Part shown: positions 34,484 through 56,129 of the stretch, in pieces
Layout of the letters: each line of letters starts with the position of its first letter
Numbering within the stretch: position 1 is the stretch's first letter
Assembly (NCBI GenBank): GCA_964348015.1
Contig: CAYGBC010000050.1
Location: forward strand, 261,001-325,000
Direction: 5' to 3'
Length of the DNA stretch: 64,000 nt
Source of the DNA: an uncultured Eubacteriales bacterium
GTDB taxonomy: Bacteria > Acidobacteriota > Aminicenantia > Aminicenantales > Aminicenantaceae
Position numbers and translations under genes: made by a program
Notes under the pieces: model-generated
What the model was told of the DNA's origin: nothing
What the model saw: the letters and a program-made list of their open reading frames with translations, nothing else
Database searches by the model: none

Positions 34484-34565
34484 TGCATCTGACTCGATGT
34501 GGACTTAAGTTCAATGTCTCAGACACTCCTCCATATGTTTCACCAAGTCCATTGAGGTTGCGGCA

Positions 34566-35798: not shown

Positions 35799-35807
35799 GA
35801 GCAGAGA

Positions 35808-37055
35808 ATGAAGCTCATCACTCTTTTCCGGCTGTTCTACAGGGAGCTCAAAAGCCAGAAGAAGAGGATCACTCTGACCATATTCGCCTTGGCCTGGGGC
35901 ACTTTTTCGATAGTCATCCTCCTCGCTTTCGGTGAAGGGCTGAAGAGGCAGATGATTAAAGCCATGCACGGTCTTGGAGATGGGATATGCATCGTCTATG
36001 CCGGTCAGACATCAAAGCCCTATAAAGGCCTGGGAAAAGGGCGGGTGATCAGACTTCAGCTGGATGATGTGGAACTGCTCCGCAGCAGGGTTTCCGGGAT
36101 CGCACTCATCAGTCCGGAGAATGACCGCTCCCGGAACAACATGACCTATGAACGCAAAAGCCTTTCAGAGCGAGTCATCGGAGTGTACCCGGATTTTGAA
36201 GATTTGCGCGGTTATAATCCGGATAGAAACAGCCGGTTCATCAATGACCTGGATATTTTGAACAAGAAGAGGGTTGTTTTCTTGGGCACGGAGTTGAAGA
36301 AGAGGCTTTTTGAGGATGAAGAAGCCGTCGGAAAGACGATTCTGATCAACCGCATTCCGTTTTTGGTGATCGGAGTCATGGTGGACAAGATGCAGAACAG
36401 TATGTACAACGGTGCAGATGTGGATAAAGCCGCCATCCCGTACTCGGCCTTCAAAACGATTTATGGAGATAAATACCTGCACCGGCTGATCTATAGACCA
36501 GAAGATCTCTCCCAAGCGGAGATGGTCAAAGATGAAGTTTTCAAAGTGCTGTCCCAGAAGTACAAATTCGACCCCACGGATAAACAGGCGCTCGAGATCT
36601 GGGATATGGTGGAAGAGGAAAAACTGATGAGAAACATTTTCCTCGGTCTGGAAATCTTCATGGGCGTCATCGGCGGGCTCACGTTGATCGTTGCGGGGGT
36701 GGGTGTGGCCAATATCATGTATGTTTCCGCAAAAAAAAGGACCAAAGAGATAGGAATCAAGATGGCGCTCGGAGCCAAAAAAAGACACGTCCTTCTCCAG
36801 TTCATTTCTGAAGCTCTGATGATCTCCTTTATCGGGGGAGGCGCAGGCGTCTTGTTCTCTTTTATCATAGTGGAGACCTTTCAAGCTCTTCCCTTACAAG
36901 GGGAGGTGGCGGATATTCTGGCCCATCCGGTCATCTCTTTGAAGATAATGGTATTAACCGCTTTCATCCTGAGTATTATCGGCTTTCTTGCGGGAATATT
37001 CCCGGCACGGAGAGCGGCCTCAGCCAAGCCCGTAGAGGCTTTGAGGTACGAATAA
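35808..37055 (+). CDS. MacB/FtsX-family ABC permease (second paralogue)
   Basis: GVANIMYVSAKKRTKEIGIKMALGAK and PARRAASAKPVEALRYE. Confidence 0.93.
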   Translation: MKLITLFRLFYRELKSQKKRITLTIFALAWGTFSIVILLAFGEGLKRQMIKAMHGLGDGICIVYAGQTSKPYKGLGKGRVIRLQLDDVELLRSRVSGIALISPENDRSRNNMTYERKSLSERVIGVYPDFEDLRGYNPDRNSRFINDLDILNKKRVVFLGTELKKRLFEDEEAVGKTILINRIPFLVIGVMVDKMQNSMYNGADVDKAAIPYSAFKTIYGDKYLHRLIYRPEDLSQAEMVKDEVFKVLSQKYKFDPTDKQALEIWDMVEEEKLMRNIFLGLEIFMGVIGGLTLIVAGVGVANIMYVSAKKRTKEIGIKMALGAKKRHVLLQFISEALMISFIGGGAGVLFSFIIVETFQALPLQGEVADILAHPVISLKIMVLTAFILSIIGFLAGIFPARRAASAKPVEALRYE

Positions 37056-37348
37056 CATGATGACAATACGCGGAAATGGCTTTGTTCCCTTCAGATTTTT
37101 TGCGCCATTCCTTCACCATCCTTCTCGGCGCCTGCGTAACTCCGCATGCCAATCCTGCCACTTCAAACTTGATAGCCGTTCTAGATCGATTTCTATGAGA
37201 TTGATTCTTTCGTGCTCAGACATACTCAGCGGCCGATTCGATCGGCTTCCCTCGAAGGATGATTCGAGAAGGCTAAATCTTCAAGGTCGCTTCATCCATT
37301 CCCGCGTATTTGACTCTCACAATTCAAAAGGAATCTAGGAGTTTGACC

Positions 37349-38020
37349 ATGATTAAAATGGATAAAATTAAGAAGATATACGGCGAAGGACCTGCGCGGG
37401 TCGCAGCCTTAAAAAATATCGACCTGGAAGTCAAGGAGAATGAGTTCGTGGGGCTGGTCGGTCCGTCGGGCTCCGGAAAATCCACTTTGATGAACATCAT
37501 GGGCTGTCTGGATGTCCCGAGTTCAGGGAAATATTATTTCGAGGGAGAGCCTGTCGCCGATTTTAACCATAATAAGCTGGCGGAGATCCGGAATAAAAAG
37601 ATCGGATTCGTGTTCCAGAATTTCAACCTGCTTCCGTACGCCACAGCCTATGAGAACGTTGAGATTCCGATGATATTCATGGGAATGCGGGCCAAAGCCA
37701 GGAAATCCCGGGCGATTGAGTTGCTCGATAAGGTCGGTCTTGGAGGACGAGCGCATCACAAACCCAGCGAGCTTTCTGGAGGAGAGATGCAGCGGGTGGC
37801 TATAGCCAGAGCTCTGGCGAATAATCCCAGACTCATTCTGGCGGATGAACCGACTGGAAACCTGGATACCAAATCCGGAGACGAAATCCTGGCCATATTC
37901 GAAGATCTCTGGAAACAGGGCCACACTCTGGTGGTTATCACTCATAATCCTTATATTTCTGAACGGGCCCAGAGAGTTATTCATCTTATCGACGGGACGA
38001 TCGAGAATAATGGTGCCTGA
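37349..38020 (+). CDS. ABC transporter ATP-binding protein (LolD/MacB type)
   Basis: [34 protein letters not shown] and ITH. Start placed at ATG 37349 after AGGAG. Confidence 0.95.
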
Positions 38021-40069: not shown

Positions 40070-40098
40070 TTGACATTTTAAGGAACAATTCTTATATT
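40070..40098 (+). promoter_or_regulatory. Near-consensus sigma-70 promoter of the secreted-paralogue operon
   Basis: TTGACA(40070-75)-N17-TATATT(40093-98), about 155 nt before the AGGAGG RBS and ATG 40256. Confidence 0.65.
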
Positions 40099-40255
40099 TA
40101 GACAGAAGCCAAGAAGGAAATGAGCGGATTCGAGAACTCTTCCCATACAAAAGGGCACGGCCCGAATATCTATGCGCTGGTCTTTTCTCCAAAAGGTTTT
40201 CGACACTAATCGAAACAAATAGATAATTTTTATGGCTTTGAAAAAGGAGGAAAAA

Positions 40256-42430
40256 ATGATGCGTCTATTATTTCGCCCAAAAAGTCTGTTTACCTGTCTT
40301 TTCATCGTCACATTGGTTTTTACTTCGACAAGTCTCTTGAGCCAGGCTTCTGATATCGAGGTGTATAACTTTATCAAGAAGGCGCGTTCTGCCAAATGGG
40401 AAAGGAATAACACTGCTGCGGGAAGGCTGCCTTTCAACGGTCCAAACACGGATAAAAGGGGATTCGCGCGCTACGTGAACGGCGCAGTCCTGGAAAATAA
40501 CGAAAAGCCCCGCACATCTGTTCTGCAGACTCATCCCGAGTGGAAAAGGAACGGAAGGATTCACGGGGTATATGAAGGAGTGAAGATTCCGCCGAATGCA
40601 AGATTCGAAGCCGCAGTCGGATTTCTCAAAGGAGCGCAAGGAACGGATGGCGTGACCTTTGAGGTCATGGTGTATGATCCGGCTACGAAAGGCGGGTATG
40701 TTGTACTCAAGAGAAGAGCTGTTTATAACGGAAGGATGAATCGGTTAAGGGCTGATTTAAGCAAATATGCCAACAAGACCCGAACAATCATCCTTCAGGT
40801 TTCTGCCGGAAATTCTTCGTCTAAAGACTGGGCCGTCTGGAAGGAGGCGAAGATCATGGCCAGGCCTGTGGTCGCGACCACAGTGAGAACGACTGCAAAG
40901 GCCCAGACCACAGTCAAAAAGACCGCCAGAACAAAGGCGGCAATTCAGCCCGGAAAATATCAGCTTGCGAAGATGAAAGCCGTGCAGCTCAGGCCTGTCG
41001 GAACAGCTCCGCCTAAACAGGATATCACCTATCTCGGACCGGTCGAAGTGGAGGAGCCCATAGTCCTTTCAGAACATATCTATAGGGACAATAAAAATCG
41101 AAGTCTATTCTACTTCCTGCCCAAAGAGATCAACTTGGTGCGCGGCCGTGACCAGGGGAGTTACAAGATCAGCGCTGTCTGGACCCAGGATAAGAAGATC
41201 AAAGCCACTCTGATCTTGAGCGCGAACATCGACCCCTCAGATGTGAAGATACTGGAAGAAGTTGTGAGGAAAAAATACGGACGGAGAGCTGTCCTGAGAC
41301 CTCTTCCTTATGACGAAGCAGAGATCATTGACATGGAAGGCTGGGGGGACTGGCAGATCGAAGACATCCGCATTCCGAGTTTCGGGTCATTGGAAGGGGA
41401 GATGCCCGTGAATATCACCATGACTCCGGATAGCCTTGCCGAACTGAAGCCGCTTCTGGAGAAAGAAGGATTAACCGCAGGAATGCACATTAAATCCGCT
41501 GCGATTGAAAAAGAAATCCCGATCAAGATCGGATTGCGCTATTTTGCCGGGAGGTTCCACTCTCCCCTTGATGAGGTGAACTTTTCCTTTAACAACAAAG
41601 ATTCCACGTTCACGATCCACAACGTGAAAAACTATTCAGACTTTCCTTTGAAAATCGATAACGTGAACCTCCGGTTTCAATTCCAGAAGGGAAGCGAAAT
41701 CTACCGCGCTCTCAGGTGTGACCCCGAAGTGATCATCCCTCCGGGGGAGGAAGCAGCGATCAAAGTCCTGATCGCCCCGAAAGCCATACTCAAAGAGGAA
41801 TTGAAAAAAACACTCGGAGAAGAAGTGAAAGAACAGAAGAAAAAATCCATACTGGATCAGGCACTGGATATCGTGAAGGAAGAGGCAGAAGAGATCGTCA
41901 AGAAGAAAGCCAAAGAGAAGGTCGGAGTGGATATCCCGGAAGGCGAGGAATACATCGACCCTAAAGTCAATCAGTTCTTCAAGGACAATCTGAAGAGCTA
42001 CTGGCTCGAAATATTGCCTGATTTCGACTGCCAGGAATGTCTGGACGTTATCTGGGAAAACGTTGAGGTTGTGTCCTACATCGAAAGGATGAGGAAGATC
42101 AACATAGAGGTGCTCGACAATGTATTCGAGGCCTCCCAGTACGAGACTTCCATCGAGATTGAAAAGATCCACATCGAGATCAAATCTCCCTATCTCAGCC
42201 CTCAGCCGAAAGAGGGTTTGATCGCCTCTGTGGACCTGACCAAGGATAAAATGCAGGATGCCATTCTGGTTTATCTGCCGCTTTCCGACCAAGAGCCTCT
42301 GGAATTCTATTACAAGATCAAAGCTATAACAAAGTCGGGCGAATCAAGGGAATCCATGGATTGGGAGTTTGTCTCAGATTCACTCGACCTCACCGTGGGC
42401 GTGTTTCATGTGGCAGAACTGTTCAAATGA
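40256..42430 (+). CDS. Secreted protein 1 of the paralogue operon: putative galactose-binding-like (NPCBM-like) N-domain, divergent family core and C-terminal beta-sandwich
   Basis: Signal peptide. The segment LQTHP..GRIHGVY..RFEAAVGF..DGVTFEV..ADLSKY..IILQV..AVW.EAKI looks like a jelly roll. IYRDNKNRSLFYFLP matches the (F/Y)xDHxD..(F/Y)YYxP start of the downstream paralogues. Confidence 0.75.
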   Translation: MMRLLFRPKSLFTCLFIVTLVFTSTSLLSQASDIEVYNFIKKARSAKWERNNTAAGRLPFNGPNTDKRGFARYVNGAVLENNEKPRTSVLQTHPEWKRNGRIHGVYEGVKIPPNARFEAAVGFLKGAQGTDGVTFEVMVYDPATKGGYVVLKRRAVYNGRMNRLRADLSKYANKTRTIILQVSAGNSSSKDWAVWKEAKIMARPVVATTVRTTAKAQTTVKKTARTKAAIQPGKYQLAKMKAVQLRPVGTAPPKQDITYLGPVEVEEPIVLSEHIYRDNKNRSLFYFLPKEINLVRGRDQGSYKISAVWTQDKKIKATLILSANIDPSDVKILEEVVRKKYGRRAVLRPLPYDEAEIIDMEGWGDWQIEDIRIPSFGSLEGEMPVNITMTPDSLAELKPLLEKEGLTAGMHIKSAAIEKEIPIKIGLRYFAGRFHSPLDEVNFSFNNKDSTFTIHNVKNYSDFPLKIDNVNLRFQFQKGSEIYRALRCDPEVIIPPGEEAAIKVLIAPKAILKEELKKTLGEEVKEQKKKSILDQALDIVKEEAEEIVKKKAKEKVGVDIPEGEEYIDPKVNQFFKDNLKSYWLEILPDFDCQECLDVIWENVEVVSYIERMRKINIEVLDNVFEASQYETSIEIEKIHIEIKSPYLSPQPKEGLIASVDLTKDKMQDAILVYLPLSDQEPLEFYYKIKAITKSGESRESMDWEFVSDSLDLTVGVFHVAELFK

Positions 42431-42523
42431 AACGCGCAGAGCCTACAGGAAATAATAAGAGTCTCTAAAAGATTTTATTAGAGAGGAAGGGAGAAATCCT
42501 TCGCCTCTGGAAAGGAGAATACG

Positions 42524-44194
42524 ATGCGTTTCCTCAATCGTTTGCTTTTAATCGGATTCAGTGTATTTGTTATCACTTTTATGGTTCATGCGGAGCTTTT
42601 ACTCGATACCGAACCTATCCAGGCCGGGAGTGTCATGCTGTTTAAAGACCATGCGGATGAACACGGCTATCATTACATGCCCTTAGCACCGAGAATCGCT
42701 ACCTGGCCCGATGGAACACCCAAGTTCAGTTTTCTCCAGTATGTTCGAACAGGAAAAGAAGTGACCGGAGGAATCCTCCATTTTCTGGTGACTTATGCCG
42801 TAACGGATGAAGATCTAAGGGAAGCTGAGAGAGAGTTGAAGAAATTCGATGAGGACGGGAAAATCATAGGGCCTGTGCCTTTCACAAAAGGCGAATTCCA
42901 CATCATCTCTTCCACAGCCGGAGAAGGAGGGATCTTCACGCGGAAGGTGACTGGAACAGGAAAGGCGCCTCTGCTGGCCGGAGCCGAAGCCGCGGTATCC
43001 ATCGCTTTGAATGAGGAAGGATCGACTTTTCTGATAGAGTCCTTCCAGAGGCCGACCTCTGATGTATCTGTCCAGTTCGTGATGACCTATCAGGGGCTAA
43101 CGCCTGCTTATGAAGCGTCTTTAACGGTCAACTGGGATAAGGTCTACGAACACCATGAGTTTCAGGCTGAGATAGGCAATTTTTTCACGAGCGCCAAGAT
43201 CAGCGCAGTCTTCGACGAGCTGAAGGAACAAGGCGCAATCGTGCTGGAAGTGACAGGAGAAGACACCAAGATGGACGACCTGTTGACAACGGCCTATAAC
43301 ATTCTGACTAAGATGATGTTCGAGGCCAAACCCGTGAGCACCGAAGACTTGGGAAAGGCAAAGGGCAAGTCCGGGAGCAATTGGCTGGGAAAACTCTTCG
43401 GCCAGGCGCATGCGAGCTATTCGATGAAGAAGGTGAAGATGTCAGGGTTGTACACTGTAGACTTAAGGCGGCGAAAAAGAGACCAGAGGGAAATTCCCTT
43501 GACGGGAAACATCGGGAATTTCTACGAAAAACACGGAAAGAACCAGGAGATTTTTGGGGTGGTCGACCTGGATGATCCGACGTTCGAAGAGCGGACGATC
43601 CACGTCATTCTGGACGGGGAGGATTTGGAGACCTTCGGGCAATTCATCAACTTTGCCGGGATCACGTTTAAAAAAGAGTATGAAGATGAAAATATGAAGG
43701 CCGTGGCCGAAGACATCATCTTTGACAGGACCAAATTCACCGAAAGCGGTAACAAGCTGTCCTTCACTTACAGAAGGAAAGGTGACAGTTCTGAAAAGTG
43801 GCTGGAATATGAGTATAAGCCGATCTGGAGTTACATCGGAGGCCTGGAAGTGGCGGGGAGCTGGATGAAGACATCTCAGCCCGTGATCACCCTGGCTCCT
43901 CCTCATAGATACCGTTTTATTGAAGTCTTGGCCGAAGAAGAGAACATGAACGAACACGGCATCATACGAGTCGCCGTGCAGTTCAAACACACCAATTTCG
44001 GGAAAGAGATCCAGAGAGAAGTCGTCCTTAGGAAAGGAGAGCCTCTCAATCTGGACTATTTCTATTTCCACGAACCGAATAACCTGGATTATGAATACAA
44101 TATCATGTGGCTCTTGAAGACCGGAAAAAAGGTTTCTTCAGGTTGGAAAAAAGCCACTGATCCCTTTGTCTATGCCTATTTTGAGGGGGAATGA
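42524..44194 (+). CDS. Secreted protein 2 (full-length member of an uncharacterised family)
   Basis: Signal peptide cleaving VHA/ELLLD. Conserved core LFKDHAD..YMPLAPRIATWPDGTPKF..GGILHFLVTY..GPVPF.KG..GEGG..GKAP..YQGLTPAYEA, then FEERTI.VILDGED and a terminal DYEY..W..SGW..DPFVY. Confidence 0.85.
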   Translation: MRFLNRLLLIGFSVFVITFMVHAELLLDTEPIQAGSVMLFKDHADEHGYHYMPLAPRIATWPDGTPKFSFLQYVRTGKEVTGGILHFLVTYAVTDEDLREAERELKKFDEDGKIIGPVPFTKGEFHIISSTAGEGGIFTRKVTGTGKAPLLAGAEAAVSIALNEEGSTFLIESFQRPTSDVSVQFVMTYQGLTPAYEASLTVNWDKVYEHHEFQAEIGNFFTSAKISAVFDELKEQGAIVLEVTGEDTKMDDLLTTAYNILTKMMFEAKPVSTEDLGKAKGKSGSNWLGKLFGQAHASYSMKKVKMSGLYTVDLRRRKRDQREIPLTGNIGNFYEKHGKNQEIFGVVDLDDPTFEERTIHVILDGEDLETFGQFINFAGITFKKEYEDENMKAVAEDIIFDRTKFTESGNKLSFTYRRKGDSSEKWLEYEYKPIWSYIGGLEVAGSWMKTSQPVITLAPPHRYRFIEVLAEEENMNEHGIIRVAVQFKHTNFGKEIQREVVLRKGEPLNLDYFYFHEPNNLDYEYNIMWLLKTGKKVSSGWKKATDPFVYAYFEGE

Positions 44195-45201
44195 TTAGAA
44201 AAAGAGTCTTTTCTTCTGCCATCTGTCTCGTGATCCTGGCGAGCGTAATGCTCGACATGCATGCGGACCCTCTGCTAAGCCAGGGAAGAATCATCGGTGA
44301 CAAGATTTTGGTTTTCCCAGACCATGCGGCAAAGAAAGTTTTCTATTACGTTCCGACAGGAATGGACCTGACACAGGCCTACGGGAAACCCCAGTTCTTC
44401 TTCTATAAATACGTCTACATCAAATCGGGCTCTTCAGGCGAGACAGAGAGAATGGCCGGAGGTGTTCTGACCCTTTCGGTCGAATTCAGCGATGAGAGTG
44501 AAGAGCTTAAAGAGATGATGGGGGAAAACCTTGAGTTCAAGCCGATTCCTGTGGAAGAGCTCAAATGTGTCCTGAACTACAGCGTTTTTGAGGGTGAGGA
44601 AAAGAAAGAAGAAGAACTCTCCCAGAGGAAAACGCCCTGGACAAAAAAGAACTTCACCATTCCTCTCAGCCGCAAGACGGCTCCTTATCTCTGGGAGATC
44701 TTTGAAGGTGAAAAGGCCCTCGGCTTGAGCATGGACTGTGAATTCACTTTCAGCGGATATGAGCTGAAAGAAGGGAAGTATGAAGAAGCCCGGAGAACTG
44801 ACCGGATGGCTTTTCCTGTGAGCGTATCGATGACGGAATATCCGGATCTTTTCAAGGTCATCAACCTTGCCAATAAGGTTTCTTTCAATTTCCGGTACAT
44901 GACAGTCCTCTGTTTCGATTTCGTGAATCAAACAAACCCGGATGTGACAAGGAAGATCGTTGAGATCGAAATCCAGACCGCGCGGGGACAGAGAGACTTT
45001 AAAAGGATATATTTTTCCGAAGACTCCGAGACACAGAAGGATCTGGAATTTGACATCCCTGAAAAAAAGGGCGGCACATACAGATTTCGAATCACGAATG
45101 TTTTGAAGGATGGGAGGACTCAAAGGACTGAATGGCAGGAGGGAAATGATTTCTACCTTGATGTGTCTGAGTATGAGATGCTAGTCAAGGATGAGAAATA
45201 A
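44191..45201 (+). CDS. Secreted protein 3 (short paralogue: partial core plus terminal beta-sandwich)
   Basis: Signal peptide MHA/DPLLS, VFPDHAAKKVFYYVP..GKPQFFFYKY..GGVLTLSV..KPIPV, and terminal TYRFRITNVLKDGRTQRTEWQEG. Start overlaps the previous stop (ATGA). Confidence 0.82.
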   Translation: MIRKRVFSSAICLVILASVMLDMHADPLLSQGRIIGDKILVFPDHAAKKVFYYVPTGMDLTQAYGKPQFFFYKYVYIKSGSSGETERMAGGVLTLSVEFSDESEELKEMMGENLEFKPIPVEELKCVLNYSVFEGEEKKEEELSQRKTPWTKKNFTIPLSRKTAPYLWEIFEGEKALGLSMDCEFTFSGYELKEGKYEEARRTDRMAFPVSVSMTEYPDLFKVINLANKVSFNFRYMTVLCFDFVNQTNPDVTRKIVEIEIQTARGQRDFKRIYFSEDSETQKDLEFDIPEKKGGTYRFRITNVLKDGRTQRTEWQEGNDFYLDVSEYEMLVKDEK

Positions 45202-45226
45202 ATGCGGATCACAAAGGAGATGTCCA

Positions 45227-47941
45227 ATGAAGTATAAAAAGATCGCATTTGTGTTTATCCTCTTCTTTTCCTGTCTGATTCTTCTGAAGGCAGAGGTTTC
45301 GCTGGAGGAAGTCATCCAGGCGGGACGGTTTGTTTTTTACAGAGACCATGCGGATCCTCATAAATATTATTATGTTCCGGATGAGCCGAGGCTCGCCACG
45401 AAGAGGGATGGGACGCCTGAATTCACATTCATCAAATACACAAAGACTGGCGGGGACATCAAGGGCGGAATAGTGCATTTCTTGGTGACCTGGGGACTGA
45501 GGGAAAGTGAGATTCTTACGGCAGAGTCTTCTCTCCAGATGCTGGACCCCGAAGCCAAAGTTGTAGGGCCAGTCCCTTTCAAGGAAGGAACGTTCAAGAT
45601 CATATCCGCCACTGCCGGAGAAGGAGGTCTTTTTAACGTGAAGATTTGCGGAGAGGGGCAAGCTCCCATCATGCCCGGCCAGAAGGGAGCCGTGTCCATC
45701 GCTTTGACTCAGGAAGGGGCGTCTTTGCTCTGGGAATCTTTCAAGAATCCGACCACGGATATATCAGTTATGTTCATGCTGAAATACAGCGGGATCACCC
45801 CTGCCTACGAAGCCAAGCTCAAAGTCGATTGGGACAAAGTCTACACCCATCATGACGTCTCTGCAGCCGTAAGTGGGACAGTGAAGGCCATCAAACTGGA
45901 CGCGGAGGTTAAAGCCATTTTTGATGAGTTGAGGCAGAAAGGGGCCATCCAGCTGGAGGTGACTGGGGAGTCAAAGGAAATGGAAAAGCTTCTTGAGGTG
46001 GCCTACGGCCATCTTATCAAGCTGATGTGCAACACGGATATCAAATCAGATGATCAGATCAAGAAATCGAAATCCAGGTCAACCCGGCGAAGAACGACCC
46101 GGAGCACCAGGAAAATAAAAAAGATCGCATCGCGTGAACTCGCTCCGGTCCTCTTCTATTCCGGCGACTCGTTATCTCTGAGTTCATGGGTCAGTCAACT
46201 CAATCCGTTCCAAACACCCAAAGCCATATTCCCGGGATTGGGAACAGCTTGGACTCTGGAAGAGAAGCTTTCAGGGCAGGACCAGCAGAGGTCTGACGAG
46301 GGAAGCCAGAAAGCGCTGAGCCTCAAAGAAGAAGGAAAAAATCATGAGGATGCGGGCGAATACATGAAAGCCATCGAGAAATACGTAAAAAGCTACGGAA
46401 CTTCTCCCGAGCCTGAGCTTCTCCATTCAGTGGCCAAGATTTATGACGAACATCTTCAAGACCCAGAAAGGGCGTCGCAGAATTACAGCCTGTACCTGAG
46501 AGAGGGAGAGAAAAAGAATGTATTTAAGGGGCGTGAAAACATAAAAAGCACAATCCAGGAGAGGATTCAGCGTCTCAAAGAATCTGTTGAGCACCACAGC
46601 AAAGGTATGGAACTGAGCATTGAGAAATCGTATCGCGAAGCCTTGATGGAGTTTGAACAATCCCAGGAAATCGCTCCGTTCTATAAGAATCTCGAGGCCA
46701 TGGGATCTTGCCACGAGAAATTGAATGAGAAGGAGATGTCTCTCGAGTATTACAGAAAATTTCTGGATTATGTCAAAAAATATACTGAACAGTTCGGGGA
46801 AATCGGTATCGAGCAGAGAATAGAGAGAAAGATCGACAGCCTTCAGTCCGGCACAGATACTCAATCCCGGACAGGTGAGATGGCTGACAGCGAGAGCACG
46901 GGGAAAGATGCGCAGAAAGGAAGCCAGGCTGCGAAGACGGATAAAACAACAGGCTCGCAGGAAAAGGCTCAACAGGAAAAAAGCGGTTCCACAAAAGGAC
47001 AAACAAAAGATGCAGGAAAGCAACGGGCTTCCTCATCGGGAAAACAGACTTCATCTCCAAGCCGCATCCCACAGCGGTCCACAAGAAGACGAGCACCCAC
47101 AAGGCCAAAAACTTCAAAGAAAACCCCTGAGGTCAAGCCTCCGTTTAACTTAAAGGTCAGCTACACCTTCAAGAGAGTCAAAATGTCCGGCCATTATGAA
47201 GTGGACCTGAGGCACCGCATTAGAGAAGAGAGGATCATGGTCATGAGCGGGAACATCGGCGGTATTTACCAACGGTTCGGGGAGGACAAGAGCTATTTCA
47301 GCACGGTTTCACTGGATGACCCGGTGTTCCAGGAAAGGACGATCGAAGTCATCCTTGACGGCCAGAACTTCGAGGATTTCAAGGAATATATCAATAGTGT
47401 TTCGGTTTTATTTAAAAAAGAGAGGTGGGGAAATCCCGCCACGACAGGAGAAGTCAAATTCTTCGATGAGCAGTTTGCGGAAAAAGGAAACCGGCTGACT
47501 TTCACCTACGGAAGAGGAGGAGAAGGCTCGACAGAATGGCTCAACTACGAATACAAGCCCAAATGGAGTTTTCACGGGGGAATTGAGTGGGAAGGCGATT
47601 GGGTGAAGACTTCGGACTCGGTAGTCACATTAAGTCCGGTGGTCAACTACCGAAGCGTTCAGATCACGATGGACAAGGATAACATCGAAGAGAACGGCAT
47701 CAAAGCCGCGGCCTTCCAGATCAAGCATCAGATCTTCGGGAAGGAGACTCTGCGAGAAGTCATCGTTGACCATGAAAAAGGTGATCCTTTGGAGGCGGAG
47801 TACAGATATTTGCATGAAGAGGGAATATTGGATTACCAGTACAAGGTCATCTGGCTTCTCAAGGATGGCAGAGAAATTCACTCGGATTGGATAAAAAAAG
47901 AAACTCCGATCATATACGCTTTTTATCAAGAACAGGATTAA
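45227..47941 (+). CDS. Secreted protein 4 (full-length paralogue with an ~360-aa inserted TPR/low-complexity module)
   Basis: Signal peptide LKA/EVSLE and a core near-colinear with protein 2 (FYRDHADPHKYYYVPDEPRLATKRDGTPEF..GGIVHFLVTW..GPVPFKEG). Two TPR-like units lie at about 46310-46850. ATG 45227 follows AGGAG. Confidence 0.85.
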   Translation: MKYKKIAFVFILFFSCLILLKAEVSLEEVIQAGRFVFYRDHADPHKYYYVPDEPRLATKRDGTPEFTFIKYTKTGGDIKGGIVHFLVTWGLRESEILTAESSLQMLDPEAKVVGPVPFKEGTFKIISATAGEGGLFNVKICGEGQAPIMPGQKGAVSIALTQEGASLLWESFKNPTTDISVMFMLKYSGITPAYEAKLKVDWDKVYTHHDVSAAVSGTVKAIKLDAEVKAIFDELRQKGAIQLEVTGESKEMEKLLEVAYGHLIKLMCNTDIKSDDQIKKSKSRSTRRRTTRSTRKIKKIASRELAPVLFYSGDSLSLSSWVSQLNPFQTPKAIFPGLGTAWTLEEKLSGQDQQRSDEGSQKALSLKEEGKNHEDAGEYMKAIEKYVKSYGTSPEPELLHSVAKIYDEHLQDPERASQNYSLYLREGEKKNVFKGRENIKSTIQERIQRLKESVEHHSKGMELSIEKSYREALMEFEQSQEIAPFYKNLEAMGSCHEKLNEKEMSLEYYRKFLDYVKKYTEQFGEIGIEQRIERKIDSLQSGTDTQSRTGEMADSESTGKDAQKGSQAAKTDKTTGSQEKAQQEKSGSTKGQTKDAGKQRASSSGKQTSSPSRIPQRSTRRRAPTRPKTSKKTPEVKPPFNLKVSYTFKRVKMSGHYEVDLRHRIREERIMVMSGNIGGIYQRFGEDKSYFSTVSLDDPVFQERTIEVILDGQNFEDFKEYINSVSVLFKKERWGNPATTGEVKFFDEQFAEKGNRLTFTYGRGGEGSTEWLNYEYKPKWSFHGGIEWEGDWVKTSDSVVTLSPVVNYRSVQITMDKDNIEENGIKAAAFQIKHQIFGKETLREVIVDHEKGDPLEAEYRYLHEEGILDYQYKVIWLLKDGREIHSDWIKKETPIIYAFYQEQD

Positions 47942-47961
47942 AACACTTTGGAGGTCAAAGA

Positions 47962-49662
47962 ATGAAAACGAAAAAACGAATTATTCTTCTCTTGTGTGCA
48001 TTTCTTCTGACATCAGCCATTCTCCAGGCTGAGGTTCTGCTGGACCAGGCTCCTCTTCAGATCGGGAATGCCATTCTTTTGCGAGATAGCGCATCGCCAA
48101 ACACATTTTACTACATTCCGAACAAGCCCCGGATCGCCACCTGGCCGGACGGCACCCCCAAACTGACCTTTCTCAAGTACACGAAAGCGGGGGAAAAAGA
48201 GCTCAAAGGAGGAATCCTTCACTTCTTTGTCACGTACAGCCTTACTCCGCAGGAACTGAAAAAGGTCAGGGATGAACTGAAAAAAAAGAACGAGAAGGCT
48301 ATGTTGAAAGGTCCGGTGATATTTAAAAAAGGAACCTTCGGCGTGATCTCCGCTGCGGTTGGGGAAGGAGGCGCGTTTACCAGGAAAGTTATAGGAGAAG
48401 GCAAGGCCCCACTGGTCTCAGGCTCGGAAGTTTCTGTCTCTATTGCTGTCACGCCGGAAGGAGCCGCCTTTCTCGATGAGGCACTGCGACAACCGACGTA
48501 TCCGGTCAGTATCCGGTTTGATATGACTTATGAGGGGCTGACTCCCAAATTTAACGCCAAAGCCAGAATTCACTGGTCTAAAGTGCGCGAATATTTTGAG
48601 GAATACAAAAAATGGAGAATCTACAAGACAAAGAAATTTTTATTCTGGAAGTGGAAAGTCCAAAAGGGAACAGGGGAGAGCCTCGATATCACGGATGAAT
48701 TGCGCTCCAAACAGATGATCGAGATCGATGTCACGGGCGAAGATGAAAACATGGAATCCATCCTTCAGACTGTGACGGACACAGTCATGCGGGAGATGTT
48801 CGAGATGAAGATCGAGCTGCCCACAGGAGCCACAGAAGAAGAGGGGGAAGAAGGAGAAGAGGAGGGAAGCCAGGATAGGGATTACGGCGTGAGCACGACG
48901 ATGAAAAAAGTGAGCCGGACGGGAACAGCAGTCATCAATCTGACCAAAAGGCTCCGCCAAGATAGGGACACGGGACCGATGGACGCCAGCATCGGTGATA
49001 TCCTCAGAAAATACAAGAATGATAAGCGTGTCCATGATGTCATCAACCTCGATGACCCGGACCTGGAAGACCGTACGGTTTACTCCATCCTGGACGGCGA
49101 GGATTTTGACAATTTCGGGAAATATATCAACTTCGTCACAGTGAGCTTCAAGAAAGCCCATCCTCAGGGCCAGCCAACCACCGCTGATGTCATTTTTAAC
49201 GCCAAGACCTTCGCGGAAAAGGGAAACATGCTCCCCTTCGTATATCCGCGGCTTGGCGAGGGGGAGGGATGGCTCAATTATGAATACAAAACCACCTGGA
49301 GCTTTATGGGAGGCATCAAGGTTGAGGGGGATTGGGTCAACACCGATGAACCGGCCGTGAGTCTTTCCCCACCGCACAGATACCGGACAGTGGACATCAT
49401 CGCCGATGAAGAAAACGTGGCCCAGTACAACATCAAACTGATCACGGTCACTCTCAAGAATAGAGTGTTTGGCAGGGAAAGAGTGCGGCAGGTCAAGATC
49501 ATGCCCCAGCAGTCCATGTGGGAAAAATACGAGTACAATCATGAAGAAGGAAGCCTCGATTTTTCTTACCAGATCACCTGGCTCCTGGGGGACGGGAGAA
49601 CAGTGACTTCTGAATGGCAGACAACCACCGATCCCTTTGTGTACACATTGTATAAAGAGTAA
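47962..49662 (+). CDS. Secreted protein 5 (full-length paralogue with a Trp/Lys-rich loop)
   Basis: Signal peptide LQA/EVLLD, PRIATWPDGTPKL, GGILHFFVTY, YEGLTPKFNAK and LEDRTVYSILDGEDF. ATG 47962 follows GGAGG. Confidence 0.85.
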   Translation: MKTKKRIILLLCAFLLTSAILQAEVLLDQAPLQIGNAILLRDSASPNTFYYIPNKPRIATWPDGTPKLTFLKYTKAGEKELKGGILHFFVTYSLTPQELKKVRDELKKKNEKAMLKGPVIFKKGTFGVISAAVGEGGAFTRKVIGEGKAPLVSGSEVSVSIAVTPEGAAFLDEALRQPTYPVSIRFDMTYEGLTPKFNAKARIHWSKVREYFEEYKKWRIYKTKKFLFWKWKVQKGTGESLDITDELRSKQMIEIDVTGEDENMESILQTVTDTVMREMFEMKIELPTGATEEEGEEGEEEGSQDRDYGVSTTMKKVSRTGTAVINLTKRLRQDRDTGPMDASIGDILRKYKNDKRVHDVINLDDPDLEDRTVYSILDGEDFDNFGKYINFVTVSFKKAHPQGQPTTADVIFNAKTFAEKGNMLPFVYPRLGEGEGWLNYEYKTTWSFMGGIKVEGDWVNTDEPAVSLSPPHRYRTVDIIADEENVAQYNIKLITVTLKNRVFGRERVRQVKIMPQQSMWEKYEYNHEEGSLDFSYQITWLLGDGRTVTSEWQTTTDPFVYTLYKE

Positions 49663-49684
49663 GAAAACCCGCATTTAAAAAAGA

Positions 49685-50608
49685 ATGAAAAAGGGATTCG
49701 CATTTATTCTGTCTCTCTGTGTTATTCTCGTCACAAGTCCGTCAGCAGAAGTGCTCTTGGACGAGATACCATTAAAAATAGGAAAAATACTCCTCTTCAA
49801 GGACCACACGGATCCAAAAATCTTCTTTTATCTCCCCGCAGAAATCCGTGTGCCTTCAGGACCGGATAACAGGCCAAAAGTCAACTTTTTCAAGCTCAGA
49901 GAGAGGGAAGCGGCCCTGAGTTTTTTCCTCACACACGGCTTGTCTCCTGACGAATTCGACAGAATAGGAAAAAAACTCGCTGAGGAGAGACCGGGAGCCA
50001 TTCTGAAGGGCCCGCTCTCGTTCTCAAAGGGGAAATTCTTTGTTTTCCACAAATCAAACGGAGCGACTGAGCTCTGGGCCAAAGGGAAAGCTCCTCTGTT
50101 TCCAAACCAGGAAATTGTTGTCACCAAAAGACTGAAAGAGCCCTTCGAATGGGATATTAGGGCTGTTTTTGTCATGGAATACGAAGGAATCACGAAAAAA
50201 ATCAACGCAAAACTGCGTGTGGATTGGGATGAAATCTATGTCCAGAGCGCTTTCAGCCAAAAAACAAACTGGACTTCAGAAGAAATAAAGGAGAGCTTGA
50301 TCAAACTCAAGGAGACCAGAGCTGTACAGTTGGAGGTGACAGGAGATGAAAGCGATTTCGATGCGGCTTGGAAGGCCGCCTCCGAACACGTGATTCATCA
50401 GATATTCGATGTTCAAGAAATCCGATTGACCGAATTTCCAAAAAAAGGTCTCAAGGAGACAGGCCCTGAAATCCTTGTCTACGCGCTCAAAACAGAAAAG
50501 AAATCAGGCAGCTACCAGGTTGATTTCAACAGACGTTTCAGGGATAAACGGAAAATTGTCCTGATATCTGATATAGGCGATACGATTAAGAAAGCCCTGG
50601 GTCATTGA
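49685..50608 (+). CDS. Secreted protein 6 (core-only paralogue)
   Basis: Signal peptide PSA/EVLLD, LFKDHTDPKIFFYLP, GPLSFSKG, GKAPL, YEGITKKINAKLRVDW and SGSYQVDF. Ends at the point where the others begin their C-terminal domains. Confidence 0.82.
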   Translation: MKKGFAFILSLCVILVTSPSAEVLLDEIPLKIGKILLFKDHTDPKIFFYLPAEIRVPSGPDNRPKVNFFKLREREAALSFFLTHGLSPDEFDRIGKKLAEERPGAILKGPLSFSKGKFFVFHKSNGATELWAKGKAPLFPNQEIVVTKRLKEPFEWDIRAVFVMEYEGITKKINAKLRVDWDEIYVQSAFSQKTNWTSEEIKESLIKLKETRAVQLEVTGDESDFDAAWKAASEHVIHQIFDVQEIRLTEFPKKGLKETGPEILVYALKTEKKSGSYQVDFNRRFRDKRKIVLISDIGDTIKKALGH

Positions 50609-50671
50609 GTATTTTTTCATAAGACGGCCTGTCATCTTTTTATATTCCAGAATGTATAAAAGGAGGAATGA

Positions 50672-51424
50672 ATGAAAGATATTTTCAGAAAAATCATTTG
50701 TGTTATTCCGATTCTCTTTTTTACTTCACTGAACCTGACTGCTCAAGAGGTCGTTCCTGATCTTATCAGTACGAGCACAAAAAGAATTCTTCTCCCTGAA
50801 ACAACAGAGCCGCTTGTTTTCATTATCAAAAGCAAGCCGGATACGGCAATCAACATAGAATTCACTGCCGATAGAAAGTTATTCACTGATTATGATAATC
50901 AGACCGAAGAGAACTTTATTTCAGATTATCTGATAATCGGCAAAGCGCCAGGCGCTCCGGCTGACAAGACTGTAGAAAAAAAATATGAACTGACTCTTGA
51001 AGATGTGAAAGCGCTGGGTCGGAGTAAGAAAAAAGAAGGATTTAAGATTTATTATCGAGCTTTAGTCCTCGGACCTGAAGATGAAGAAGGAGAATCAGCG
51101 GTCACGCACTGGTCTTTCAGTGACGATGACTTGGAGAAGGCTCCGTTCGTCTTCGTTTTTAAAACTCATGAGGCACAGATGGGATATGATTCCTTTTTAA
51201 AAGGAGAAGAGTACTTCAGGCAGGATGAATACACCAAAGCGATCGAGGAGTATGAATCCGCTTTTTTCTATTATCCTGATCCTGTGTTTATTTATAATAT
51301 CGGGATATGTCATCTTCGACTGGCTACGGCGCATATCCTGGAGTTTTTAGAATACGAGGAAGTTACTGAGGAAGACCGTACGAGAGCACAGAATCTCCTC
51401 AAGAGGTTGCGTGGGGATAAGTAG
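50672..51424 (+). CDS. Secreted protein 7: unknown N-domain plus C-terminal TPR
   Basis: Signal peptide LTA/QEV and C-terminal F.KGEEYF..EY.KAIEEYE.AF..YPDP.FIYNIG.CH.RL TPR. Confidence 0.75.
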   Translation: MKDIFRKIICVIPILFFTSLNLTAQEVVPDLISTSTKRILLPETTEPLVFIIKSKPDTAINIEFTADRKLFTDYDNQTEENFISDYLIIGKAPGAPADKTVEKKYELTLEDVKALGRSKKKEGFKIYYRALVLGPEDEEGESAVTHWSFSDDDLEKAPFVFVFKTHEAQMGYDSFLKGEEYFRQDEYTKAIEEYESAFFYYPDPVFIYNIGICHLRLATAHILEFLEYEEVTEEDRTRAQNLLKRLRGDK

Positions 51425-53125: not shown

Positions 53126-54481
53126 TCAAAACCTCAATGTGAAAATCGTCTGGACATTCGGCTCTGAATGAACGCCTATAGATCCATTGTGCAGCCGTAT
53201 GATCTGCCGCGAAAGGCTGAGCCCGATACCTGAACCCTCATCTTTTGTGGAGAAGAAAGGAATGAAGATCTTTTCCAGATTTTCCCGTGGAATTCCCGGA
53301 CCGTTATCGACAACCTGAATGATAACACGACCTCTTCCGTCCATCAGGCCGTTGAGTTCTATATGTGCGTTTTTCCGTCCTTTGACTGCCTGAAAGGCAT
53401 TCAACATCAAATTGATCAAGACCTGTTCGGTGAGCTCTGGGTCGGCGGTGAGCTCAAGAGTTTCAGGATCAACTCTGACTTTCAAGCGAATGGAATTCTC
53501 TTTGATATTGGATTGCATGAGTTTCTGAACCCGATCAAAAAGCTCTTTTATCGGAAAAATCTGAAAATTGGGCTTGGGAATCAGAGTCAGGTTTCTGTAT
53601 GCATCCACAAAATGAAGAAGTCCCTGGCTTCGTTTCTGGATGGTCTTCAGGGCCTGCTGGATATCCTCCAGTGCTTCACTTTTGAACTTTTTCTGTGTCG
53701 TCTTCTTTCCATAAGTGTCCTGGATCAATCCGCTGACCGTAGACGTCAGGGAAGAAATCGGGGTGATCGAGTTCATGATTTCGTGGGTGAGGACCCGGAT
53801 GAGTTTTTGCCAGGCTTCCATCTCTTTTTCTTCCAATTCGCTATGAATATTTTGTAGGGAAACCAGCGAAAATTTCTGTCCTCTTAATTTGAACTCAGTG
53901 GCATATAAGGCGAGGTGCAGTAATTCATTCTCATATTCCACTTTAACGAGCGCGCTTTCTCTTGATTTTAAGTCCAGCATAGTCTTCACCAGAGTCTTGC
54001 TGAGCGATTCGAGTGATTTGATGTTTTTAAGCCTGGCGACTCCCAACAGTCTTTTCGCTGCAGTGTTGATCAGCTCAACTTCTCCATCCGACTGAAAGGC
54101 AATCAACCCGATGCCTACGTGCTGAACGACGGTCTGCAGATACTGGAAGTGTTCCTCCTTTTCGGACCGCGTCTTGCGAAACGCTGCCATGACATCTGAA
54201 AACGCATCCTTCAGCGCATCGAAAGATGGACCAAATCCTTTATCTCTGAATGACTGGGAAAAATCCCCGTATTTGATGGATTCGAAAAATCGAGTCAGGT
54301 CTCTGTTCGTTTTTTCGACATACCGGATGAGGTCGAAAATTTGAAACAGGATGATTATGCCTAAAATAAAGAGCGCCGTGTACAAACTGGTCCGAAATAA
54401 AAGAAAAAAGAAGATGTAGATCGATGCTCCGATAAGGAGAATTCGAACAAGGCAGTTGATCCTGAAGCGATTAAAGACCAT
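53126..54481 (-). CDS. Sensor histidine kinase (NtrY/NtrB-like, PAS + HisKA + HATPase)
   Basis: Two N-terminal TM helices, H-box LTHEIMNSITPI, N-box QVLINLMLNA, DNGPGI, F-box PFFSTK and GSGIGLS. Start placed at ATG 54481. Confidence 0.93.
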   Translation of the reverse strand: MVFNRFRINCLVRILLIGASIYIFFFLLFRTSLYTALFILGIIILFQIFDLIRYVEKTNRDLTRFFESIKYGDFSQSFRDKGFGPSFDALKDAFSDVMAAFRKTRSEKEEHFQYLQTVVQHVGIGLIAFQSDGEVELINTAAKRLLGVARLKNIKSLESLSKTLVKTMLDLKSRESALVKVEYENELLHLALYATEFKLRGQKFSLVSLQNIHSELEEKEMEAWQKLIRVLTHEIMNSITPISSLTSTVSGLIQDTYGKKTTQKKFKSEALEDIQQALKTIQKRSQGLLHFVDAYRNLTLIPKPNFQIFPIKELFDRVQKLMQSNIKENSIRLKVRVDPETLELTADPELTEQVLINLMLNAFQAVKGRKNAHIELNGLMDGRGRVIIQVVDNGPGIPRENLEKIFIPFFSTKDEGSGIGLSLSRQIIRLHNGSIGVHSEPNVQTIFTLRF

Positions 54482-55847
54482 ATTTCTCGAATCTTCGATA
54501 CAAAGATGTCCGGGATAATCCCAGTTCTTTGGCCGCATGGCTGATGTTTCCACCGTGTTTACTGAGAGCCTTCCGGATGATCAATTTTTCTATCTCCTCA
54601 AGATTGTAATCCTCGAAGAACAGCGAGTCTTCTTTGGATTCTACAGAAGGAAAAAAGAAATCAGAGGGCTGCAGCACTGTGGAGTCACTCATTATGACGG
54701 CTCGCTCAATCGCATGCTGGAGTTCGCGAACGTTTCCGGGCCAGGGATATTTCTCCACGCGTTTCAAAGAAGCAGGATTCACTTTTTTGAGAGGCTTGTT
54801 GTATTTTTTGCAGTAAACCTTGAGAAAATGATCCAGAAGCAGGGGAATATCCTCAGGGCGGTCTTTCAAATGAGGAATCCGGATTTCCACAGTGTTCACT
54901 CTGTAGAGGAGATCCTGCCGGAACCTATTCTCCGCGATCATTTCGTGGATCGGCATGTTGGTCGCGCAAATGAGGCGGACATCGATCGGAATGGGTTTAT
55001 TCGAACCAAGGCGTATGACTTTCCGGTTTTCTAATACGGTGAGAAGTTTGGCCTGGAGAGTCAGCGGAAGATTGCAGATCTCATCGAGGAACAGGGTTCC
55101 TCCGGACGCGATCTCAAAACGGCCTGCGCGGTCTTCCCTTGCGTCTGTAAAAGCACCTTTCACATGGCCGAAGAGTTCGCTCTCGAAGAGGGTTTCGCTC
55201 ACGGCGCCCATGTCCACATTGATGAAAACCTCATTGCAGCGCAAGGACTGGCGGTGCAATTCCCGGGCGACCAATTCCTTTCCTGTTCCGTTGTCTCCCA
55301 GAATCAAAACATTGGCATCGGTTTTAGCCACTTTTTGGATAGTCATGAAGACTTCTTCCATTGCAGGACTTTGACCGATAAAGTCGTGAAATGGCTGGTC
55401 CAGGTCCGCACTGAGCTGTTTCTGGCGGGACCGGAGATGATTCGCTTCCACTCGAGATTCCCTCAAATGAATAGCGGCCGAGACTGTGGCGATGAGCTTT
55501 TCGTTCTGCCAGGGTTTGAGGACAAAGTCCGTCGCTCCTTCTTTGACTGCCCGGACTGCCATTTCCACGTCACCAAAGGCTGTGATCAAGACGATCACCA
55601 CAGAAGGATCGATTTCAAGGATCTTACTGAGCCAGATAAAACCTTCTTTGCCGCTCGTAGCCCCTTTGGCGAAATTCATATCCAGAAGAATCACATCATA
55701 GCTCTCATTCTTCATCAGAGAAGGGATGGACTTCGGGTTTTTTTCTGTATCCACCTGGGCGACATGCTTTTTCAGGAGTAGCCGGGCAGCCTGAAGAATG
55801 TCTTCGTCGTCATCGACGATAAGTATCTTTCCTGTTTTCTTGTCCAT
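54471..55847 (-). CDS. Sigma-54-dependent response regulator (NtrC family)
   Basis: Receiver ILIVDDD..LLDMN, AAA+ GDNGTGKE, ESELFGHVKGAFTDA, LFLDEI, DLLYR, WPGNVREL and a Fis-type HTH. Confidence 0.96.
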   Translation of the reverse strand: MDKKTGKILIVDDDEDILQAARLLLKKHVAQVDTEKNPKSIPSLMKNESYDVILLDMNFAKGATSGKEGFIWLSKILEIDPSVVIVLITAFGDVEMAVRAVKEGATDFVLKPWQNEKLIATVSAAIHLRESRVEANHLRSRQKQLSADLDQPFHDFIGQSPAMEEVFMTIQKVAKTDANVLILGDNGTGKELVARELHRQSLRCNEVFINVDMGAVSETLFESELFGHVKGAFTDAREDRAGRFEIASGGTLFLDEICNLPLTLQAKLLTVLENRKVIRLGSNKPIPIDVRLICATNMPIHEMIAENRFRQDLLYRVNTVEIRIPHLKDRPEDIPLLLDHFLKVYCKKYNKPLKKVNPASLKRVEKYPWPGNVRELQHAIERAVIMSDSTVLQPSDFFFPSVESKEDSLFFEDYNLEEIEKLIIRKALSKHGGNISHAAKELGLSRTSLYRRFEKYGL

Positions 55848-56113: not shown

Positions 56114-56129
56114 TGGCACATTTATTGCA
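56114..56129 (+). promoter_or_regulatory. Sigma-54 (-24/-12) promoter of exporter operon 2
   Basis: TGGCAC-ATTTA-TTGCA, near-consensus, next to a divergent sigma-54 activator gene. Confidence 0.85.

Follow-up and report, generated by a model that had tools for sequence, protein, structure and literature searches.

Closest Described Systems

Anti-lipopolysaccharide factors (ALFs) have a cationic amphipathic beta-hairpin within a folded alpha/beta protein, and the positive residues of this hairpin are thought to bind the phosphates of lipid A (PMC10672452). Here I describe a similar-looking segment in P5, a secreted protein encoded by the fifth gene of a paralogue cassette (P1 to P6) of an uncultured Aminicenantaceae bacterium. 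The cassette lies in 64,000 nucleotides of contig CAYGBC010000050.1 (GenBank assembly GCA_964348015.1, positions 261,001 to 325,000); this whole stretch is called the window, and coordinates are counted from its first letter. It was found that, in P5 and its orthologues, a conserved element of the protein family carries a beta-hairpin insertion which is itself conserved and specific to this paralogue. Tentatively, the hairpin is regarded as a candidate anchor to an anionic lipid surface.

Like the hairpins of ALF-L/ALFPm3, the P5 hairpin is cationic, contains hydrophobic and aromatic residues, lies in a folded protein, and has a comparable length and composition. In contrast, the ALF hairpin is stapled by a disulfide bond, while the P5 hairpin has no Cys. 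ALFs are small defence proteins of arthropods, and P5 is a 566-residue subunit of a bacterial operon. Neither Foldseek nor a peptide search against the PDB revealed any sequence or fold relationship between them, and lipid A binding by P5 may be proposed by analogy.

Cationic antimicrobial peptides generally have a net charge of +2 to +9 and at least 30% hydrophobic residues. The P5 hairpin sequence YKKWRIYKTKKFLFWKWKVQK falls within these ranges, with a charge of +9 and 10 hydrophobic or aromatic residues out of 21 (~48%), and it shares the beta-hairpin shape with tachyplesin, polyphemusin, and arenicin and resembles the lactoferricin-type Trp-rich peptides (PMC10672452). On the other hand, the P5 segment is probably not a free peptide; it is embedded between conserved secondary-structure elements of a large folded protein. 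No processing signal was recognised in P5, although proteolysis might release the segment. The P5 hairpin lacks disulfides and significant two-faced amphipathicity, and half of its aromatic residues belong to an invariant framework which probably packs the insertion itself.

In beta-pore-forming toxins, the stem hairpin is amphipathic, and its i/i+2 alternation is strict along some 2 x 10 residues or more. P5 resembles the stem-bearing toxins (alpha-haemolysin, aerolysin, and the B components of binary toxins) in being secreted, in having a hairpin between conserved anchors, and in one low-confidence extended model. However, the P5 hairpin is too short, does not alternate, and is charged on both faces. 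There is no fold relation to the haemolysin, aerolysin/ETX-MTX2, MACPF/CDC, gasdermin, or PA families, judging from Foldseek against the PDB and from the Pfam and NCBIfam scans. At the level of the operon, the type V pilus operons of Bacteroidota (fimA-E and mfa1-5) are similar in encoding several mutually paralogous exported beta-rich proteins, which presumably hetero-assemble. The cassette differs from them in lacking a lipoprotein signal and any fold or sequence match, and the type V pilins have no counterpart of the hairpin.

A Conserved Insertion in P5

The P5 protein is composed of a Sec signal peptide (cleavage after LQA), an N-module, an acidic linker, and a C-terminal beta-sandwich region. 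In the mechanical listing of open reading frames (ORFs), the P5 ORF spans 47887-49662 and opens at a TTG codon (47887). Since the P5 orthologues are 564-572 residues in length and their alignment begins at MKTKKRIILL, the true start should be the ATG codon at 47962, which lies 20 nucleotides downstream of the P4 stop at 47941. Residue numbers are counted from this Met. The features of P5 around the segment are as follows; all are on the forward strand, and model numbers refer to model mffc8dbb9219a, with the predicted local distance difference test score (pLDDT) where it applies.

47962..49662 (+), P5 gene with the corrected start, 566 residues (from the ORF list, the orthologue alignment, domain HMM matches, and structure models)
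48025-49017 (+), N-module of P5, residues 22-352, which P6 covers as well
48574..48603 (+), upstream short helix WSKVREYFEE, residues 205-214, comprising the upstream anchor and the invariant R209, Y211, and F212; model helix 184-193, pLDDT ~91-97
48586-48693 (+), P5 segment, encoding REYFEEYKKWRIYKTKKFLFWKWKVQKGTGESLDIT
48616..48636 (+), hairpin strand 1, RIYKTKK, residues 219-225; model strand 198-204
48637..48648 (+), hydrophobic tip F226-L227-F228-W229, with the highest column entropy in the segment; turn at model residues 205-206
48643..48666 (+), hairpin strand 2, FWKWKVQK, residues 228-235; model strand 207-214
48667..48678 (+), GTGE motif, residues 236-239, which closes the insertion; loop 215-217 in the model
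48688..48708 (+), downstream anchor helix ITDELRS, residues 243-249, whose DEL(K/R) is conserved family-wide; model helix 222-228, pLDDT ~96

A previous sequence-only reading of this DNA had placed the P5 insert at 48586-48690. Its quoted string agrees with the translation, but the end coordinate was one codon short: the interval encodes REYFEEYKKWRIYKTKKFLFWKWKVQKGTGESLDI, and the final T of the string is the codon 48691-48693. The strings that it quoted for P2, P4, and P6 between the W(D/S)K(V/I) and DEL(K/R) anchors are all read as such.

Is the segment a variable loop, as was proposed there? For the comparison, 150 diverse representatives of the family were aligned to the N-domain profile. 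The anchor-to-anchor stretch is 23 residues in most of them and 27 residues in the next largest group. This canonical element has the consensus YxHxxFxAG(V/I)AxxYLxAEIxxAF, a net charge near zero, and few Trp residues. The 23-residue class includes P2 and the 27-residue class P4, and each version is kept among its own orthologues. The P5 segment is 36 residues in length, corresponding to an insertion of 9-13 residues over the canonical element, and this length is constant across 121 orthologue clusters (66-92% identity). P5-type clusters account for only 4 of the 150 representatives. The stretch is thus usually an element of fixed length, and the term variable loop had to be given up. Since every version is conserved among the orthologues of its own paralogue, these results point to paralogue-specific specialisation rather than hypervariability.

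Twelve positions (K207, R209, Y211, F212, Y215, K217, W218, I220, G236, G238, E239, and D245) are invariant in all 121 P5 orthologue clusters, Y215 lying one residue past the upstream helix. T237 (120/121), W231 (119/121), and V233 (117/121) are nearly so, and positions 222 and 224 are occupied by Lys in at least 94% of the clusters. The most variable positions of the segment are those of the tip (226-230), with a mean column entropy of 1.47 bits against 0.55 bits protein-wide. Even so, residues 226, 227, 228, and 229 are restricted to F/L, M/G/L/W, F/I/V/W/L, and W/F, respectively. Two of the four P5-type representative clusters, P0248 and P0259 (~45% identity), retain the pattern R-x-(Y/F)-F-E ... 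R-I-(V/Y)-R-basic ... W-x-W-Y-V-x-x-G-E.

Composition and Strand Periodicity

The segment had been described as cationic and aromatic, and its composition proved to be rare. Stretches of 36 residues with at least three Trp, at least nine aromatic residues, and a net charge of at least +5 occur in just 13 of the 2,233 proteins called from the organism's 2.9-Mb genome. In the other 12 proteins, the comparable stretches are mostly transmembrane- or juxtamembrane-like. The rare composition together with the conservation indicates that the P5 feature is genuine and that selection acts on it. On the Wimley-White interfacial scale, the tip FLFW (226-229) has a sum of -4.67 kcal/mol, which ranks first among the 542 tetrapeptides of mature P5, and FLFWKWKV is the best octapeptide (-4.47 kcal/mol). 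The tip sum is favourable in every one of the 121 orthologues, ranging from -2.0 to -6.0 with a mean of -4.0. All of them also have a basic collar, with 5-10 Lys/Arg and at most one Asp/Glu in residues 216-235.

The i/i+2 periodicity was measured as the hydrophobic moment at 170 degrees against 2,000 shuffles. Only the P4 27-residue segment was significant (p = 0.010); the P5 hairpin (p = 0.33-0.35), the whole P5 segment (0.34), the P2 segment (0.11), and the canonical 23-residue element (0.09) were not. Of the partial alternating polarity that had been suggested for P2 and P4, only the P4 part therefore stands, and the alternation check that had been proposed for the hairpin gave values for P5 no better than those of shuffled sequences (p = 0.33). 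Moreover, any sheet strand lying on a hydrophobic core alternates, so that the P4 periodicity is no evidence of membrane insertion. In the sequence of the P5 hairpin, Lys residues are found on both faces. The P4 segment itself, YTHHDVSAAVSGTVKAIKLDAEVKAIF (45800-45880), belongs to a 27-residue class that is conserved in several representative clusters.

Predicted Structure

Two AlphaFold runs were performed. Run 1 used the full-length P5 and a shallow, mostly Aminicenantes alignment (A2), and gave a pLDDT of 77 and a predicted template modelling score (pTM) of 0.44. It predicted a single hairpin with 30-residue strands (197-226 and 229-258; pLDDT ~73). Run 2 used the N-module (residues 22-352) and a far more diverse alignment (A3, 92 rows), and gave a pLDDT of 87.3 and a pTM of 0.75, with 87-91 in the hairpin and 87-97 over the blocks of this region. 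In this model, helix 205-214 is followed by the loop YKKW, strand 219-225, the turn F226-L227, strand 228-235, the GTG turn, the short strand 239-242, and helix 243-249. Both runs place the turn at F226-L227/F228, with KKFLFW as the tip of a beta-hairpin, in agreement with the hairpin proposed from the sequence. The hairpin with 30-residue strands was dropped as a default state because the deeper alignment gave a different and much more confident local structure. The two local structures of residues 197-258 (48550-48735) may be an artefact or a hint of conformational plasticity.

The strand pairing implied by the model defines two faces. The first consists of W218, I220, K222, K224, W229, W231, and V233, which are invariant or nearly so except for W229, which alternates only with Phe. 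The second (R/K219, Y221, T/K223, K225, F228, x230, K/Y232, and Q/R234) is more variable. Since the insertion is absent from the other paralogues and lies between conserved anchors, it must lie outside the shared hydrophobic core. Burial in the core, which would have argued against membrane contact, is thus unlikely.

When the N-module was compared by Foldseek with 350,542 PDB chains, no match reached E <= 0.001; the best match (E = 0.02) was a piece of a beta-sandwich with a template modelling (TM) score of ~0.17, and the best TM scores of the search were 0.17-0.20. Thus, the fold of the N-module is unlike that of any solved pore former or other solved structure. The full-length model matched only generic Ig-like/MG-domain arrays (TM ~0.1), which reflects the C-terminal beta-sandwich region, and the hairpin peptide alone gave only chance-level matches in the PDB (E >= 0.6). 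Across all libraries, the sole structural neighbour at E < 0.001 was an uncharacterised Medusavirus stheno protein, A0A7S7YF07, in BFVD (E = 3e-5, TMq 0.33, 14% identity), which gives no hint of function.

Long-Insert Paralogues in Other Phyla

Is an extended segment found outside the P5 lineage? In each of the distant cassettes, exactly one paralogue (~650-670 residues, with an N-terminal extension) has an extended segment of 35-49 residues at the same anchors.

Loci L045 to L061, long-insert paralogues of distant cassettes, for example L046:11843-13834, L047:12583-14586, and L045:12182-14383

The Desulfobacterota segment (48 residues, ...REKKTTKKRYWNPKWYN...) and the segment of a Verrucomicrobiota metagenome-assembled genome (MAG) (49 residues, ...KSRGGKAGKFWDSLFGKKK...) each have an aromatic centre flanked by six Lys/Arg. 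A maximum-likelihood tree of the N-domain was built after removal of the trait columns; it is a quick build with an arbitrary root. The P5-type clade (93 in the SH-like approximate likelihood ratio test, SH-aLRT) groups with the Aminicenantes P2, P4, and P6 and the canonical class, and the long-insert paralogues of the other phyla fall into a clade of their own (98). The label has to change at least twice on this tree, although gene conversion among the Aminicenantes paralogues could mislead it. These sequence comparisons suggest that the site acquired an extended element of basic and aromatic character more than once. Such repeated origin argues for a function at the site.

A Candidate Interfacial Anchor

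Loops seated in an anionic membrane interface usually combine a hydrophobic, aromatic tip with a basic collar, and the ALF hairpin proposed to bind lipid A is built in this way too (PMC10672452). With its Sec signal peptide, P5 can reach the lipid surfaces of the envelope. The reading that I prefer, though tentatively, is that the P5 hairpin anchors the protein peripherally to an anionic lipid surface (phospholipid or lipopolysaccharide, LPS) and is not a transmembrane pore hairpin. The invariant aromatic residues around the upstream helix (Y211, F212, and Y215) and the proximal invariant face of the hairpin would form a small core of the insertion itself. The distal Lys/Trp rungs, the Lys collar, and the FLFW tip would project outward from the surface of the N-module. 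The Lys collar would first be attracted electrostatically to the anionic lipid surface, and the aromatic tip would then insert shallowly. P5, and through P5 the multi-paralogue assembly, may in this way be tethered to a membrane leaflet or to lipid A/LPS. The hairpin would then act in the manner of the ALF hairpin or of Trp-rich loops in peripheral membrane binders, and not as the stem of a pore-forming toxin.

The invariant frame combined with a tip that varies and yet stays hydrophobic among the orthologues suggests an anchor of this kind. The sequence-only reading had proposed a membrane-contacting or membrane-inserting hairpin as the functional tip of the complex. Contact by the P5 hairpin is plausible, the tip being the best Wimley-White stretch of the protein. 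For insertion as a pore-type stem and for a functional tip of the complex, no support was found.

Several points weigh against an anchor. Surfaces rich in Trp and Lys also bind acidic glycans, nucleic acids, and acidic protein partners. The exposure of the tip is deduced from the insertion status and from its position at the hairpin turn of the model. The two AlphaFold runs differ in the extent of the flanking strands, 30 residues with the shallow alignment and 7-8 residues with the deep one. The design is not universal, because the long segments of Spirochaetales (38 residues) and Bacteroidota (35 residues) lack the hydrophobic centre with a basic collar. Finally, the family has no known function by which the proposal could be judged. 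If the hairpin binds anionic lipid or LPS, it would place the assembly in the envelope and suggest the polarity of the complex. By itself, such a cationic, aromatic hairpin on a protein surface is nothing out of the ordinary. As a subunit-specific element with a clear physicochemical signature, it is one of the few testable handles on the family, namely on which subunit touches lipid and with what.

Among the alternatives, the one that survives best is a latch between or within subunits, which is possible but to my mind somewhat doubtful. The basic hairpin would dock on an acidic surface, either the linker of P5 or a patch or insert of another paralogue, and would fix the place of P5 in a hetero-oligomer or be masked until assembly. 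The linker of P5 is a possible electrostatic partner in this respect.

48808..48879 (+), disordered acidic linker KIELPTGATEEEGEEGEEEGSQDR, residues 283-306, pLDDT below 50 in run 1

In all 121 orthologues, residues 281-309 have a net charge of -2 to -11 (mean -5.7), and the hairpin segment has +3 to +8. Family members with a long segment also have more acidic linkers on average (-3.3 versus -0.1). However, segment charge and linker charge are not significantly correlated across the family (Spearman rho -0.11, p = 0.34; the samples are not phylogenetically independent), and the linker of the P5-type relative P0248 is neutral. Masking of the basic hairpin by the acidic linker would be possible in P5. 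The invariance of one hairpin face (W218, I220, W231, V233, K222, and K224) is what a specific interface would show, and W218, I220, W231, and V233 could form an inter-subunit interface instead of the internal mini-core that the anchor reading assigns to them. Cassettes always have several paralogues, which implies hetero-assembly. On the other hand, any of several hydrophobic residues may occupy the tip positions, and a lock-and-key contact between proteins would less typically allow such freedom. If the hairpin is an inter-subunit latch, it would help to define the order of assembly.

Binding of a non-lipid polyanion, such as an acidic exopolysaccharide or capsule, a peptidoglycan-associated polymer, or extracellular DNA, is unlikely. 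In this case, Trp and Tyr would stack on sugars or bases, with Lys paired to the charges. Surfaces with aromatic and basic residues are typical of glycan- and nucleic-acid-binding sites. P1 also shows a weak, sub-threshold likeness to the NPCBM carbohydrate-binding domain (E = 0.012). In contrast, the purely hydrophobic Phe/Leu/Met/Ile tip is unsuited to sugar or DNA, and no carbohydrate-binding or DNA-binding fold was recognised by Foldseek against the PDB and BFVD.

I consider it less likely still that the insertion is a structurally tolerated, lineage-specific decoration with no specific ligand. The whole segment is indeed slightly less conserved than the protein average, ranking 408th of 509 among the 36-residue stretches of P5. 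However, its length is fixed, its 12 invariant positions hold in the orthologue clusters down to 66% identity, a recognisable version persists in P0248 and P0259, and a similar design has appeared independently at the same site in other phyla.

A transmembrane beta-hairpin of a homo- or hetero-oligomeric barrel pore is very improbable: the extended run 1 model as a possible alternative state, the P4 periodicity, and the occurrence of secreted proteins in paralogue sets, as in some bi- and tripartite toxins, favour it, but the short strands between helices in the better model and the Lys residues on both faces cannot be reconciled with a stem that spans the bilayer, the hairpin does not alternate significantly, no matching barrel could be completed by the other paralogues, which lack the extension, and the fold and family searches (Foldseek against the PDB, Pfam, NCBIfam, and PADLOC) returned no pore former.

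Going back to the anchor reading, a wider extrapolation can be made, which I regard as rather improbable as a whole. The hairpin would be the membrane- or LPS-engaging element of an undescribed, phylum-spanning, multi-subunit envelope machine, in which one subunit per cassette has a basic aromatic anchor insertion of at least two independent origins, and in P5 the hairpin would be masked by the conserved acidic linker until assembly. If true, this would provide a first clue to the function of a dark family that numbers over 1,200 sequence clusters and whose fold resembles no solved structure.

The Family, the Operon, and Its Surroundings

P2 matches 1,209 clusters at E <= 1e-3 and 343 at 1e-30 among 1.84 billion representatives at 50% identity. 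In members of the family, the N-module is followed by a variable linker or insert and then by a beta-rich C-terminal region. P5 clearly belongs to it, matching the family-built N-domain (E = 1e-133) and C-domain (E = 7e-126) profiles and sharing the signal peptide and the tandem cassette. The family is found in Aminicenantes and in MAGs labelled Desulfobacterota, Verrucomicrobiota, Spirochaetales (Spirochaetota), and Chitinophagaceae/Bacteroidota. In these five phyla, the genes are always in tandem, with 3-5 co-oriented paralogues per cassette. Going by the source names of the orthologues of P5 and P2, the window belongs to Aminicenantes/Ca. Saccharicenans. A scan of this genome with the family profile revealed one copy only, which is the present cassette.

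40232..51424 (+), host operon, P1 to P6 and a TPR-like seventh gene, all with signal peptides
42524-44194 (+), P2
45191-47941 (+), P4
49685-50608 (+), P6

None of the seven operon proteins has a match above threshold in Pfam, NCBIfam, or PADLOC; the sub-threshold hints are TPR and the NPCBM likeness of P1. A phmmer search of P5 against PDB sequences found no relative. Weak matches of the family profile to coronavirus nsp8 in PDB sequences (E ~0.01-0.04), which involve a helix and linker region, were judged compositional and spurious. A literature search combining Aminicenantes with pore-forming found no papers. The family is without an earlier description, without a Pfam or NCBIfam model, and without a solved structural relative.

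A near-consensus sigma-70-type promoter (TTGACA-17 nt-TATATT, 11 of 12 matches) lies at 40070-40098 (+), ~130 nucleotides upstream of P1, which fits a single transcription unit for the cassette. No sigma-54 promoter was found in a scan upstream of the operon. The flanks of the cassette in the window encode HlyD/MacB/ABC efflux, a PD-(D/E)XK nuclease, small membrane proteins, a histidine kinase, and a sigma-54-type response regulator. Pfam scans of the window and of four distant cassettes revealed no conserved linkage of these flanking genes to the cassette. Inside the four distant cassettes, TPR families were the sole Pfam matches among the accessory genes.

The efflux genes upstream of the cassette form a full MacB-type tripartite set at 33392-38020 (+), consisting of an HlyD-family adaptor, two MacB/FtsX permeases, and an ABC ATPase; the PD-(D/E)XK nuclease gene separates this set from the cassette. 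The gene of the sigma-54-type response regulator occupies 54471-55847 on the minus strand. Beyond it, a perfect sigma-54 consensus TGGCAC-N5-TTGC (TGGCACATTTATTGC), which is unrelated to the operon, was found at 56114-56128 (+).

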